Part shown: positions 41,948-63,177 of the stretch, piece by piece | Numbering within the stretch: the first letter of the stretch is position 1 | Layout of the letters: each line of letters begins with the position of its first letter | Origin: a virus | Virus record (IMG/VR): IMGVR_UViG_3300047198_000026 | Location: 38,593 to 102,592 of that record | Direction: 5' to 3' (one strand) | DNA: 64,000 nucleotides | The notes under the pieces: generated by a model | Seen by the model: only the letters and a program-made list of their open reading frames with translations | The model's database searches: none | Told to the model about the DNA's origin: nothing | Made by a program: the position numbers and the translations under genes

Positions 41948-42330
41948 GACAGCCATTTGTGAGACCTAAAAAAATAACGATTGGGTCCTGGAAGTATAGG
42001 ATCCACTATATAAGTGGGGATAAGAAGAAGAACCCATTGGAGGGACGTAGTTGGGCTGTAGTGGATATTGGATCCAGAGATATCTGGGTTGATAAATCCC
42101 TAACGCCCAGAGAAGTAAGGTTTGTTTTAGTCCATGAGGTACTACATGCAGTTTCAGATGCTATTGAGGGAAGAAATAACAAATTTAGGAAGGAAGAGTA
42201 TTGTAGACCATTTACCTGCTTTTTGATCAATGCCTTGGAGAGTTCAGGTTTATTTCCAGAATATCCTGGAAAGGTTATAGAAAAGGCAAAGGATAAATGC
42301 AATCCAAAGGCCATAGGTAAGATAAAGTGA
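41944..42330 (+). CDS. Small HExxH metallopeptidase-like phage protein
   Basis: IWVDKSL...VLVHEVLHA; ATGA overlap at 41944. Confidence 0.6.
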   Translation: MRQPFVRPKKITIGSWKYRIHYISGDKKKNPLEGRSWAVVDIGSRDIWVDKSLTPREVRFVLVHEVLHAVSDAIEGRNNKFRKEEYCRPFTCFLINALESSGLFPEYPGKVIEKAKDKCNPKAIGKIK

Positions 42331-42558
42331 GCCCAGAAAGATATGGCCTATCCTTTTATACTCCCACCATTTTCTCTTCTCAAACTCCTTACACCATCCA
42401 AATTCAGGTTCTAGGTGTTCCACATATGTCATGGAAAGACCACTAGGGTTTAGACGTTCTGCAATTCTCAGCTTGTCACATCTCTCCTGTTTCTCATAAG
42501 AAATCCAATATGTACATTTCCGGCAGTTAACGTGGACCTTATTTTTTGAAATTTCCAT
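42250..42558 (-). CDS. Small Cys-containing protein with MEISKN N-terminal tag
   Basis: GAGG RBS, CRKC motif, C-terminal hydrophobic segment. Confidence 0.55.
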   Translation of the reverse strand: MEISKNKVHVNCRKCTYWISYEKQERCDKLRIAERLNPSGLSMTYVEHLEPEFGWCKEFEKRKWWEYKRIGHIFLGSLYLTYGLWIAFILCLFYNLSRIFWK

Positions 42559-42663
42559 AGGGTTTCTTCCTCTTATAAAATTCTGGATACGATTTCCTTA
42601 ATGACTTCAGAATTTCCTCTGCTGTGGCAGGTTCAGCTACATGTACCTTGGGTTTTATTTTTT

Positions 42664-44448
42664 TCATACTATCCTTGAGATTCCATCCTTGTCTCTTCTG
42701 ACAAAAATCTCATGGTCAAAGGAGCTCTTAAAGACGTCCTGATGACTAATAACAACGATCGTTCCAATCTCTTTCTTCATATCCTTAAGAAGGTCAAGTA
42801 AATCCTCCTGCCCACTCTTATCAATCGATATGTCCAAAACCTCATCCAGTAAGAGAAAGTCAAACGCGTTTACCCCAAGATCCAAGGCCCACCGGCGAAT
42901 GGCAAAGAGCATTACTGCATTTATCCTTGCCCTCTGGCCATCTGACAATCCCCAGTAGTTCACCTTCTGATCGTCCATTTTAATAACAATCTCAATCTCC
43001 TCCCTAAAGGCGCCACTCTTTAATTCCTTTTGGGGGGCAATCTCTAAGGAGAGTCTCTCTGATGTAATTTTAGAGAGATACATATTGGCCAGAAATTGTA
43101 AACGTCCAAAGGCCTTCTCAATGATAAAGGACACTACCCCAGCTTTACTGAATACCCACTTTAGGTAGGAAAAGAGATCAATGTCCTTGGCCACCTGGAC
43201 CTTTCTGGCCTCTAGCATTTGCTGTGAGTTGCCCATTTGTTGGAGGTCCTCCTGCTGTTGTAGGAGGAGTTTATCATAGGGAGATACCTTGGCTTGTTCG
43301 TCAGCAATCTGTTTATTAATGGACTGGATACGCTCTTGAGATGATTTGACGTCCATCTCATACTTCAGCTCCTCCATCTCAATAGACTTGAGCTGCTGTT
43401 GGAGACTAAAGAGGGTATTGGTCATTTCTGTAGCCTTGGCTATTCTATCCCTCTGGGATTTAAGCTCCCTATCATACTTGTTAATCATTCTCTTCCAAGA
43501 ATCCAGTTGGGACTGCATAGCAGCTTTTCCCTGTTGTAGGGGCACACACTGGGAACAATCCTCTATGGGGCCTTTACCCTGCATCAGGTTGAACATATTG
43601 TCATGCTGATTCATCAGGACAGCCCGATCGGCGGACACCATGGCTATTCGCTCATTGGCCTCAGTAATGGTGGGTCCACATTGGGATTCCAAAACAGTGA
43701 CTTGGTTCTTAATATTCTGTTTGACAACGCCAGAGGGAGGACTCCCTGTTATTGATGTATCTCTTCCGTCTTCCAACCCTTTGATCTTGAGGGCTTTGGC
43801 TTCGTCGAACTCATCTTGAGCTTTTCTGTAGGTTGACGCTCTTTCAATCCCTTTCTGGATTTCAGATTTGATTGTTGCCAATCGTCTTTCAATATCGCCG
43901 TATTCGAGGTCGAGGGTGTCGTGGTTTTTACCTGCTTTCTTGTAGGCCTCGTCGATCTTGTCAAGGTTGAGGATACCTTTGAAGAGTTCCTTCTTACTGG
44001 TGTCAGTGGAAGCACCGAGAAACTGAACCTGCCCCTGAGAGAAGGCGGTTGACCTAACAAAGGTGAAGTAATCACTTCTAAAGGTGCTTTCAATGATTCT
44101 CTGAACATCAGTCTTGTTACCAAGTTGTGAAACGCCTCCAATTGAAAAAGCAAGGTTTCGCGGTCCTCGTTCGATAATGTAATCTGTTTTTCCATCAGTT
44201 ACCTCCAATTTAACGTAACAACTGTCTGTTCCCCATCGGACAACATCCTGACCAGTTAGTCCTTTGGTGGTCTTGTTGAAAAGGGCCCAGCAGATGGCTG
44301 AAACAATACTGCTCTTCCCTGACCCATTACTATCCCCATTCTTGTCATTGAATCCAGAAATGAAGTACAGCCCGGGCTTTGAGAAATCGATCGTGGCCTC
44401 CTTGAAAGATAGGAAGTCTTTGATAACAAGGGATTTTAGGTGGAACAT
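42664..44448 (-). CDS. SbcC/Rad50-like ATPase (T4 gp46-like)
   Basis: Walker A NGSGKSS, coiled coil with CSQC hook, LSDGQ signature, LLLDE, ISH. Confidence 0.93.
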   Translation of the reverse strand: MFHLKSLVIKDFLSFKEATIDFSKPGLYFISGFNDKNGDSNGSGKSSIVSAICWALFNKTTKGLTGQDVVRWGTDSCYVKLEVTDGKTDYIIERGPRNLAFSIGGVSQLGNKTDVQRIIESTFRSDYFTFVRSTAFSQGQVQFLGASTDTSKKELFKGILNLDKIDEAYKKAGKNHDTLDLEYGDIERRLATIKSEIQKGIERASTYRKAQDEFDEAKALKIKGLEDGRDTSITGSPPSGVVKQNIKNQVTVLESQCGPTITEANERIAMVSADRAVLMNQHDNMFNLMQGKGPIEDCSQCVPLQQGKAAMQSQLDSWKRMINKYDRELKSQRDRIAKATEMTNTLFSLQQQLKSIEMEELKYEMDVKSSQERIQSINKQIADEQAKVSPYDKLLLQQQEDLQQMGNSQQMLEARKVQVAKDIDLFSYLKWVFSKAGVVSFIIEKAFGRLQFLANMYLSKITSERLSLEIAPQKELKSGAFREEIEIVIKMDDQKVNYWGLSDGQRARINAVMLFAIRRWALDLGVNAFDFLLLDEVLDISIDKSGQEDLLDLLKDMKKEIGTIVVISHQDVFKSSFDHEIFVRRDKDGISRIV

Positions 44449-45416
44449 AACAACTCCTTGGCTACCTTAATAGCCTCATCTTTGTCAATAATGGTGTTAG
44501 ATTCTTTAATAAAATTTTCTACTGTAACCTCAATGGGTTCCGTTGTCTTCTGCTCGAGACGCACGGGCTCTTCGGCCAATTCGTATTTGACTGTGACATT
44601 GGGTCCAAAGTCAGGTAACACAATTCCCCTCTCCTTTACTACAACTTGGAAATAGGCCCTTGGAGAGTCTTGTATATTCTCTAACATAATATCACAGTCT
44701 TCCTGACTTCCCACTAAGGGAAGTGTCCTGAACTGGGGAGAGTCAATAGGAACAAATTTCATCATAAAGGAATCCTTCAACAGATAGACCCCTTTGTCCT
44801 CTCCAGCATCCCCATGGTTATTCTGCATTACTGATCCAAGATACATAGCAGAACCCCACATCTGCCTCTTATGGATATGCCCTAGAAGTGACATGGTATA
44901 CGTTTGAAAAGACGATACGGCGACTCCCTCAGTTAGGGAGAACCCCAGCCCTGTTTTGGCCCCCATCACTGGCACATGCCCTAAAAGCAGATCGGCTTTG
45001 ATAGGTGGTAAAGGTTGTCCCCAAGGCACCATTACCACACGGTAGCTATCAAATACCACTTCTTTTACAGTGTCTACTACCGCAACTCCACTCATAGACT
45101 TAAACGGCTCGAAGAGGTTAATCCCCCTATGGATATCATGGTTCCCCACGATTAGCCAAACACACTTGGTGTGTTGTCTCAATTTGTCTACAATCCTGTA
45201 GGCTGCATCATAGATAACCTTGGGGAGGGTCTCTCCTAACTGATTGAACAGATCTCCCATGAAGACAATCCTGTCAGCCTGATACTCGTCTGCGACCTCA
45301 CAGACCTTATCTATGACCTTTTCTTGCTCTGCTAGTCTACTGTTGCGCCCATCAGGAAGGGTATAGGAATACTGTCTATATAAATCGATGTGAATATCCC
45401 CGAATAGAAGAATCAT
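44436..45416 (-). CDS. SbcD/Mre11-like metallophosphoesterase nuclease (T4 gp47-like)
   Basis: GDIH, GDLF, GNHD, GHIH motifs. Confidence 0.92.
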   Translation of the reverse strand: MILLFGDIHIDLYRQYSYTLPDGRNSRLAEQEKVIDKVCEVADEYQADRIVFMGDLFNQLGETLPKVIYDAAYRIVDKLRQHTKCVWLIVGNHDIHRGINLFEPFKSMSGVAVVDTVKEVVFDSYRVVMVPWGQPLPPIKADLLLGHVPVMGAKTGLGFSLTEGVAVSSFQTYTMSLLGHIHKRQMWGSAMYLGSVMQNNHGDAGEDKGVYLLKDSFMMKFVPIDSPQFRTLPLVGSQEDCDIMLENIQDSPRAYFQVVVKERGIVLPDFGPNVTVKYELAEEPVRLEQKTTEPIEVTVENFIKESNTIIDKDEAIKVAKELLCST

Positions 45417-62417: not shown

Positions 62418-62610
62418 GGGTTACCTTCTTACATGGATGACTCGTACACCTCTCAATTCCGTCCCCTCTCTGGGAAAAGTGAAGTCCGTTTCGAAAACCC
62501 CGAAACCGAAAACACAGATTGTCTGGCGTGTGGGGGTTTCCATGAATGCAAAACTTTCCACAAGTCTTAGATATAGGGCATTGGTACTTAACGTTTTCAC
62601 TTATTTGCAT
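62404..62610 (-). CDS. Small Cys/His-rich protein with MQISEN tag
   Basis: KYQCPIS..C...C.H...H.P...C; start reassigned to 62610. Confidence 0.55.
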   Translation of the reverse strand: MQISENVKYQCPISKTCGKFCIHGNPHTPDNLCFRFRGFRNGLHFSQRGDGIERCTSHPCKKVTHANK

Positions 62611-62719
62611 ATCGTCGCATCCATACGTTATAGTCAGACACAAAGTAACTGGGAAAGGAATGGCTCACCCATCCCATCCTCCAAAAGCTATAGTAGATGT
62701 CATTCTCACTTATTTGCAT
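62597..62719 (-). CDS. Small protein with MQISEN tag
   Basis: ATG at 62719 behind GAGG. Confidence 0.5.
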   Translation of the reverse strand: MQISENDIYYSFWRMGWVSHSFPSYFVSDYNVWMRRYANK

Positions 62720-62868
62720 GCCGAACCTCATACCTTCTGTCCTTATGTTTAACCCCCTTATATTCCTTCCAAATGCCACTCTCTTGTGTCCACACAAGGC
62801 AGTTGCCACTAGGTCTGCCTTCAGGACATCTAGGTGTCTTTGGCTTAGTGGTCAGTATGTCTTCAATT

Positions 62869-63177
62869 TTATGGTCCATTTTTTAGTTTTCCCTCCTTCA
62901 ATTCCTGTGGTGATGGATGAACAGTTTGCCAACCTTTGCCTGACCATTGGCCAGAAATGGTTGAACAATAGATGTCATGTTTCTCCAATAGGAGACAATG
63001 GAGCTTCATGAGTAGACCATTGGTTTTACACCTCTTGTCACAAGGATTCATCGAAGTTTTGTAACAACATCTTACATATCCCTCAACTTGATAGATCAGA
63101 GGGTGCTCTCCTGATCCTGGAGAAATATAATCGCCCTCATAAAATAACAATTTTCGTCTATTCTTGGATAATTGCAT
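62869..63177 (-). CDS. Hypothetical protein with MQLSKN tag
   Basis: First ORF downstream of the tRNA; AAGG RBS. Confidence 0.5.
   Translation of the reverse strand: MQLSKNRRKLLFYEGDYISPGSGEHPLIYQVEGYVRCCYKTSMNPCDKRCKTNGLLMKLHCLLLEKHDIYCSTISGQWSGKGWQTVHPSPQELKEGKLKNGP

Follow-up and report, generated by a model that had tools for sequence, protein, structure and literature searches.

A hexapeptide at the N terminus of 44 early proteins of an uncultured sediment phage, spelled differently in related phages

Why should a phage DNA polymerase of 810 residues and a series of small, mostly unrelated proteins encoded around it begin with nearly the same six residues? The question is raised by IMG/VR virus record IMGVR_UViG_3300047198_000026, the 102,592-bp linear genome of an uncultured phage from freshwater sediment (G000). 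The right-hand 64 kb of this record (positions 38,593 to 102,592) is the stretch of DNA analyzed here and is referred to as the window; coordinates labeled "genome" refer to the whole record. A preliminary description of the window had listed N termini of the form M-[E/Q/D]-[I/L]-S-x-N, here called the tag, together with some variants. All 19 start coordinates in that list translate to the peptides given for them, and the polymerase is indeed one of the carriers, with MDISQN at the start of its 810 residues.

The strict motif was defined as a start codon followed by [EQD][IL]S.N, and its expected frequency was obtained from 50 simulations with an order-2 Markov model. The window contains 15 such matches and the whole genome 32, of which 30 are on the minus strand; 0.96 were expected, and no simulation gave more than 4. 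The genome-wide enrichment for which a check had been proposed is therefore present. A six-frame search of the genome for the pentapeptide gave 43 occurrences, and 32 of them stand immediately behind a start codon. A wider form, M-[EQDK]-x-S-x-N in open reading frames (ORFs) of at least 38 residues, is found at the N terminus of 44 ORFs, 17 in the window and 27 in the remaining genome; an extra match, at genome 66521 inside a late gene, was left out. A Shine-Dalgarno-like site is present at -18 to -4 for 43 of the 44 tagged starts, against 30% of background ATGs. Beyond the hexapeptide, positions 7 and 8 favor K or R. As a protein signal at the N terminus the hexapeptide is thus genuine, and its required place is immediately at Met-1.

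The late block of the genome occupies 20–80 kb, with an early arm on either side. All 44 carriers lie in the two early arms, on the minus strand at 1–14 kb, on the plus strand at 17.4–19.4 kb, and on the minus strand at 81–102 kb of the genome. The genome-wide search placed none of them in the late block, where "late" is a matter of position only. About 15 minus-strand carriers had been proposed at first, which was too few. Likewise, the statement that no plus-strand (late) gene has the full motif needs a correction for the six plus-strand genes at 17.4–19.4 kb, which are outside the window; these belong to an early arm, so that the absence of the tag from late genes stands. Among the early-arm proteins shorter than 130 residues, 41 are tagged and 26 are not (about 60% tagged). 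Of the 26 untagged proteins, five have a signal or membrane helix at the start, and another two show the near-variants MILTPN and MSISKK.

Selection holds the tag at the level of amino acids, not of DNA or RNA. When starts were chosen by M-[EQD]-[ILMK]-x-x-N, ignoring position 4, this position was Ser in 40 of 40 cases and never Thr or Cys; when position 6 was left out of the selection, it was Asn in 40 of 46. Position 2 is E, Q, or D, and position 3 is mostly I or L. Ser-4 is encoded by both of its codon families, with 24 AGY and 20 TCN codons across the 44 tags. Bases 10 and 11 are thus AG or TC, never AC or TG, and the constraint is therefore one on the protein. The TCN tags are grouped in the left arm and the AGY tags in the right arm, and the family switches inside paralogue groups, for example from AGT at window 55033 to TCC at genome 18377, and also within a family of Cys/His miniproteins described below. 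When tagged starts are compared in pairs, their mean nucleotide identity reaches 65% across the 18 bases of the tag, compared with 28% in each of the flanking 30-base stretches, upstream and downstream, and it is 44% at third positions within the tag. The use of two Ser codon families, with identity at background outside the 18 bases, bears out the earlier suggestion that selection acts on the peptide rather than on a DNA site.

Several nucleotide-level properties of the tag were examined and set aside. The codons are skewed, with 21 GAA against 3 GAG, and ATA for 17 of 19 Ile residues. However, codons ending in A are also preferred at codons 2–6 of untagged genes (41% A versus 26% in gene bodies); this bias is general to N termini, and a special codon signal in the tag was dropped. 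The genome contains two tRNA genes (327–402 and 16084–16153), Ala (TGC) and Ile (GAT), the latter decoding AUY and not the AUA favored in the tag. At position 5, AAG is used over AAA, which we suspect avoids an A-run. Reduced mRNA structure was dropped as well, because the predicted folding energy of the region from -25 to +35 is the same for tagged and untagged early genes (-6.7 versus -7.6 kcal/mol, p = 0.52). Upstream genes often have their stop codon within the tag, with overlaps of -20, -17, and -14 nucleotides (for example at window 42558, 54687, and 55033); untagged early genes mostly overlap by a 4-nucleotide ATGA. We take the longer overlaps to be a by-product, because a codon 2 starting with G or C (Glu, Gln, or Asp) precludes the ATGA overlap. 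Out-of-frame stops as the purpose of the tag were rejected; they are found for the AGT spellings only and are a by-product as well.

Three whole syntenic relatives of 106–113 kb (G001, G003, and G004), two of them with terminal repeats and all with polymerases 42–48% identical, carry tags of a different spelling. In G001, small early-arm proteins begin with M-[PGSVT]-L-E-I-L-x-N (14 starts), in which position 2 is always a small residue. In G003 the sequence is M-K-I-L-x-[HQN], usually followed by K (15 starts), and Leu-4 is spelled with all six Leu codons. In G004 there are just about three tags, of the G001 type, and on a contig of 11.6 kb four genes have M-K-T-F-x-H. Counted in G000, G001, G003, and G004, respectively, the G000 tag occurs 47, 1, 7, and 5 times (about 5 expected), the G001 tag 0, 14, 1, and 3 times (0.2 expected), and the G003 tag 0, 1, 15, and 0 times (0.27 expected), which makes the matrix a diagonal one. 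Around 80 related polymerase genes (1.14 Mb) the density of the G000 tag is 0.5 per 100 kb, and among 69 polymerase-linked loci repeated N-terminal triplets are seen in the near clade only. A scan of IMG/VR for the 18-base tag pattern returned 17 loci, each a single chance match.

Placed next to each other, the different spellings share a common grammar, namely a hydrophobic residue, a charged or polar residue, I/L, L/S, any residue, N/H/Q, and K/R. Removal of the initiator Met in G001, for which the small residue at position 2 would be suited, would leave x-L-E-I-L-x-N, which is near to M-E-I-S-x-N. A zinc-ribbon protein (genome 12921–13250) allows one gene to be followed across the genomes, with orthologues in G003 (E = 2e-7) and G001 (E = 8e-7). 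Its N terminus is METSKNK in G000, MKIILNK in G003, and MSLDFIKNK in G001, each in the style of its own genome. An orthologue that is 60% identical, on a JGI contig of 47,675 bp, starts with MDKSRN, and a Cys/His miniprotein starting with MEISDN lies on a contig also of 47,675 bp, which we take to be the same one; this nearest relative appears to share the tag grammar of G000. Another trio of syntenic genes, located downstream of that for the primase-helicase, has MILTPN, MKQIMHK, and MLNIFLQK, in a weak alignment of 16–23% identity. Judged from these sequences, the spelling of the tag is lineage-specific and shifts together across genes, including one clear orthologue.

The polymerase illustrates the gain of a tag. 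None of 37 polymerase orthologues with 41–51% identity has the tag at its N terminus, whereas the polymerase of G000 gained it. Together with the zinc-ribbon protein, whose orthologues switch tag by genome, this answers the earlier question of whether orthologues gain or lose the tag. No polymerase more than 51% identical was found in a collection of 5.8 billion proteins, and megablast of the polymerase gene against a phage collection gave no match. The protein is a fusion of a family-4 uracil-DNA glycosylase (UDG)-like domain with conserved Cys residues, a 3'-5' exonuclease, and a family A polymerase, an architecture that is found clade-wide; some orthologues have 1036–1138 residues.

To compare the bodies of the 44 tagged proteins, the first seven residues were removed and the remainder was clustered by BLAST, which resulted in 35 clusters. 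The carriers had been called unrelated, and for most of them this is so, but for about a third it is overstated, as the set includes a paralogue family. Similarity, said to stop mostly after residue 6, continues further in the K/R bias at positions 7 and 8, in the Cys/His family, and in three smaller paralogue groups, although most bodies remain unrelated. By alignment, about ten tagged proteins (window 61471–62610 and genome 3241–14091) form this Cys/His miniprotein family, with the arrangement tag, x2, Y/F/W, x, C, x5, C ... C-x-H-x3-H. The smaller groups are a four-member C-I-N-G-S-L-C family, a pair of membrane proteins, and one more pair. The remaining carriers include the polymerase, the zinc-ribbon protein, and proteins of 100–155 residues that belong to no family. 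Pfam and PHROG gave no match for ten tagged proteins and only sub-threshold matches for others. Homologues in the three related genomes were found for 2 of the 44 tagged genes versus 16 of 46 untagged early genes. However, among proteins shorter than 130 residues the two classes are equal, and the idea that tagged genes are more ORFan-like than untagged small genes was dropped.

An HMMER search for the Cys/His family gave 18 matches at E < 0.001, some of them with multiple repeats and up to 884 residues long. The family (C-x5-C ... C-x-H-x3-H), of proteins of 55–160 residues, is widespread and unannotated. Its remote members start with M-x-x-N-Q-L-Y-I-C, without the tag, and have an Asn five residues ahead of the first Cys, so that Asn-6 may have begun as a feature of this family. 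In an AlphaFold2 model of the 75-residue miniprotein at window 62190–62417, which is of low confidence (predicted local distance difference test score, 57), residues 1–7 are coil. In this sole model the tag is predicted to be an unstructured overhang. The features in the window, together with the other genes considered below, are collected in Table 1.

Table 1. Tagged and near-variant ORFs of the window, candidate readers, and two genes of the replication module
Feature	N terminus (Ser codon)	Position	Strand	Remarks
102-residue ORF, Cys-rich N-terminal half, hydrophobic C terminus	MEISKN (TCA)	window 42250–42558	-	No Pfam or PHROG family
76-residue ORF, GTG start	(M)ELSPN (AGT)	window 46211–46441	-	
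38-residue ORF	MELSPN (AGT)	window 46422–46538	-	
60-residue ORF	MSISKK, near-variant	window 50088–50270	-	
75-residue Cys-rich ORF	MEISKN (AGT)	window 50382–50609	-	
90-residue membrane protein	MQISEN (AGT)	window 53485–53757	-	Paralogue of the ORF at 57458–57703
74-residue ORF	MEKSTN (TCT)	window 54106–54330	-	
70-residue ORF	MELSPN (AGT)	window 54475–54687	-	
58-residue ORF	MELSPN (AGC)	window 54671–54847	-	
61-residue ORF	MEISPN (AGT)	window 54848–55033	-	Paralogue at genome 18377 has MEKSLN (TCC)
810-residue DNA polymerase	MDISQN (TCT)	window 55017–57449	-	UDG-like domain, 3'-5' exonuclease, family A polymerase
81-residue membrane protein	MEISEN (AGT)	window 57458–57703	-	
102-residue ORF	MILTPN, near-variant (Thr for Ser)	window 59000–59308	-	
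84-residue ORF, GTG start	(M)EKSKN (TCT)	window 61230–61484	-	
63-residue Cys/His miniprotein	MELSRN (TCA)	window 61471–61662	-	
75-residue Cys/His miniprotein	MQISKN (AGT)	window 62190–62417	-	
68-residue Cys/His miniprotein	MQISEN (AGT)	window 62404–62610	-	
40-residue ORF	MQISEN (AGT)	window 62597–62719	-	
102-residue ORF	MQLSKN (TCC)	window 62869–63177	-	
DUF2201 metallopeptidase-VWA protein		genome 8275–9456		Early arm, flanked by tagged genes
MoxR-type AAA+ ATPase		genome 9664–10716		Early arm, flanked by tagged genes
192-residue M28/M20-like peptidase		genome 19360–19938		Early arm, flanked by tagged genes
dATP/dGTP diphosphohydrolase-like gene		window 53744–54094	-	Replication module
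Nucleoside 2-deoxyribosyltransferase-like gene		window 52363–52824	-	Replication module

What might the tag be for? Quite possibly, and this is the explanation that we tentatively prefer, it serves as an address or as a handling signal, co-evolving with a putative trans-acting reader. Most plausibly, a single reader, from the phage or from the host, would recognize the free N terminus together with residues 2–7. With such a reader, docking, sorting, or removal could be applied collectively to dozens of unrelated early accessory proteins, for instance by timed turnover through an unfoldase-protease or by recruitment to a common hub. Because reader and tag would co-evolve, each lineage would have its own version on a shared grammar.

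Three genes in the early arms of G000, for a DUF2201-VWA protein, a MoxR-type ATPase, and an M28/M20-like peptidase, were considered as the reader. The profiles PF13203 and PF07728 were found in G000 only; profile searches of four related records detected neither the DUF2201-VWA nor the MoxR gene, and BLAST detected none of the three genes in G001, G003, or G004. For the M28-like peptidase, no relative of solved structure was found by sequence. Being absent from G001 and G003, which do bear tags, these proteins cannot be the general reader. A leader peptide for radical S-adenosylmethionine (SAM)/SPASM enzymes, as in ribosomally synthesized and post-translationally modified peptides, was also rejected: radical-SAM genes are present in G001 and G004, although G004 has about three tags, and there are none in G003 with its 15. 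The β-clamp-binding motif QL[SD]LF has hydrophobic residues at motif positions 4 and 5. The corresponding residues 5 and 6 of the tag are K/E/P and Asn, which are not hydrophobic, and this candidate was dropped.

The loss of the MoxR-VWA-metallopeptidase system as general reader counts against an address or handling signal, and there are further points on that side. Core replication proteins other than the polymerase are without the tag. The concerted change of spelling is drawn from one clear orthologue trio and one weak trio. About ten carriers form the Cys/His family, and with Asn present in its remote members, part of the pattern would be family heritage. Binding, cleavage, and turnover by a reader are as yet proposals. 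Finally, the reader could be the host ribosome or a co-translational factor, which would make the tag a translation signal.

This last thought leads to the main rival, in which the tag is a translation-enhancing nascent peptide, that is, a standard start module working in cis on the ribosome while the first rounds of elongation take place, much as the synthetic SKIK tag does. Young, poorly adapted ORFs would in this way be robustly expressed, the host translation apparatus would serve as the reader, and the spelling would shift with the host. The position directly behind Met-1 in 32 of 43 occurrences is as expected, the carriers are for the most part small ORFans, the tag over-uses GAA and ATA, and the polymerase could have acquired the tag for yield. 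It is known that short peptides at the N terminus can increase expression, with the amino acids rather than the codons being responsible, in a position-specific manner (PMC10192921, PMC12551147). On the other hand, the absolute invariance of Ser-4 and Asn-6 exceeds what would be expected for an optimum of yield, and the genes that are probably most highly expressed, those of the major capsid protein and the single-stranded DNA-binding protein, are untagged. The folding energy at the start and the bias toward A-ending codons at codons 2–6 do not set tagged genes apart from untagged ones. Moreover, ribosome tunnels are conserved, so that lineage-specific spellings are not obviously expected. Altogether, a nascent-peptide effect seems a possible but rather unlikely origin of the pattern.

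Alternatively, the tag could be a legacy of gene birth, if new early genes arose by duplication or capture of the start of a Cys/His family gene (the Shine-Dalgarno site and first codons) and were then held by a weak generic constraint. The family structure of the carriers, with about ten in one family and three other paralogue groups, is well accounted for in this way. Local duplication would fit the separate grouping of TCN tags (left arm) and AGY tags (right arm), the relatives differ widely in how many genes are tagged (44, ~14, ~15, and ~3), and the remote Cys/His members already have N-x-L-Y-x-C. What gene birth does not account for is the invariance, the orthologue switches, or the polymerase. 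The bodies have diverged past recognition, yet Ser-4 and Asn-6 are invariant through switches of codon family, which needs strong purifying selection. No DNA similarity is left upstream or downstream of the tag, the zinc-ribbon orthologue is tagged differently in each genome, and the polymerase gained its tag although its orthologues are without any. We consider this explanation improbable.

The last two explanations fit the data poorly. A capsid-targeting signal of the T4 kind, by which the carriers would enter the prohead and be injected together with the DNA, had been offered as an analogy. The analogy holds for the pattern, a short N-terminal peptide on diverse cargo, but not for the context. 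By position, all carriers are early-arm genes among the replication genes, and none is in the late block or structural. A PHROG scan of the terminase, portal, and capsid genes and their neighbors recognized no prohead protease, with two genes between portal and capsid belonging to no family, and 44 cargo species that include the polymerase and membrane proteins would be implausible. Capsid targeting is thus very unlikely. An RNA or DNA element over the first codons, such as the operator of a translational repressor (T4 RegA type), a small-RNA target, or a recombination linker, would suit the location on the start codon and the upstream stops within the tag at overlaps of -20, -17, and -14 nucleotides, but is hardly credible given that bases 10 and 11 are AG or TC only, that third-position identity is 44% in the tag with flanks at a background of 28%, that G003 uses six codons for its Leu, and that the overlaps follow from E/Q/D at codon 2.

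If the tag is an address or handling signal, the clade of sediment phages of ~105–113 kb may perhaps possess a private, co-evolving N-terminal code. Each lineage would place its own label of 6–8 residues on up to ~60% of its small early proteins, here also on the DNA polymerase, and one lineage-matched receptor would deal collectively with dozens of unrelated effectors, for instance for timed destruction or for recruitment to a replication or takeover hub. We found no published description of genome-wide N-terminal tags on phage early proteins. If true, one label would govern the handling of a quarter of the phage proteome, and it would give experiments one point of access to dozens of early ORFan proteins, which could be pulled down, depleted, or relocated jointly. 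It would also be a natural example of a viral address code or of a translation-enhancing N-terminal peptide. The lineage-specific spelling and the tag-switching orthologues provide a co-evolution signal by which the reader could be sought, and annotators could use the tag as a sequence rule for the true starts of tiny phage genes.

Some other properties of this phage were observed along the way. It is present as short contigs, almost free of variants, in four other freshwater-sediment runs. Two minus-strand genes of the replication module are a possible hint of modified DNA bases: one, also conserved in both G001 and G003, resembles a dATP/dGTP diphosphohydrolase (PF18909, E = 8e-34), and the other resembles a nucleoside 2-deoxyribosyltransferase. 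Two homing-endonuclease-like ORFs, at genome 32380–32763 and 43916–44335 (the latter at window 5324–5743), interrupt the structural and radical-SAM regions, and both have paralogues in G001, G003, and G004. The first of them adjoins the major capsid gene and is assigned to HNH by PHROG, with an N terminus that by eye is LAGLIDADG-like. A scan for sigma-70-type promoters and terminators in the window from 44 to 64 kb gave no excess over shuffled controls.

Among known systems, the T4 RegA protein is an RNA-reading translational repressor with operators on early mRNAs. As with the tag, one signal is found at the start region of several early genes, but RegA reads RNA, whereas the constraint on the tag is on amino acids. 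N-terminal recognition motifs of the unfoldase ClpX, for example that of lambda O, were reportedly described by Flynn et al. in 2003. They too are short N-terminal peptides on unrelated proteins, handled by one unfoldase, and the M-K-I-L of G003 loosely resembles their "Met-basic-hydrophobic-hydrophobic" class. However, these are loose classes, in contrast to the invariant hexapeptide of the present phage. Tags of the SKIK type comprise 4–6 residues right after Met, and it is the peptide, not the codons, that acts, with specific positions being important (PMC10192921, PMC12551147). The G000 tag likewise stands directly after Met, and its conservation is at the level of the peptide; SKIK-type tags are engineered and were tested in Escherichia coli, and the G000 tag differs in sequence and is far stricter within its genome. 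We know of no natural genome-wide use of SKIK-like tags. The nearest published pattern is the capsid-targeting sequence carried by T4 internal proteins, a short conserved N-terminal peptide that is the sole shared part of diverse, fast-evolving small phage proteins (PMC3012670). In both cases a brief N-terminal peptide is common to otherwise unrelated small phage proteins, here 44 carriers in 35 clusters. In contrast to T4, the 44 carriers described here lie in the early arms and include a DNA polymerase and membrane proteins, and the spelling of their tag varies between related phages.

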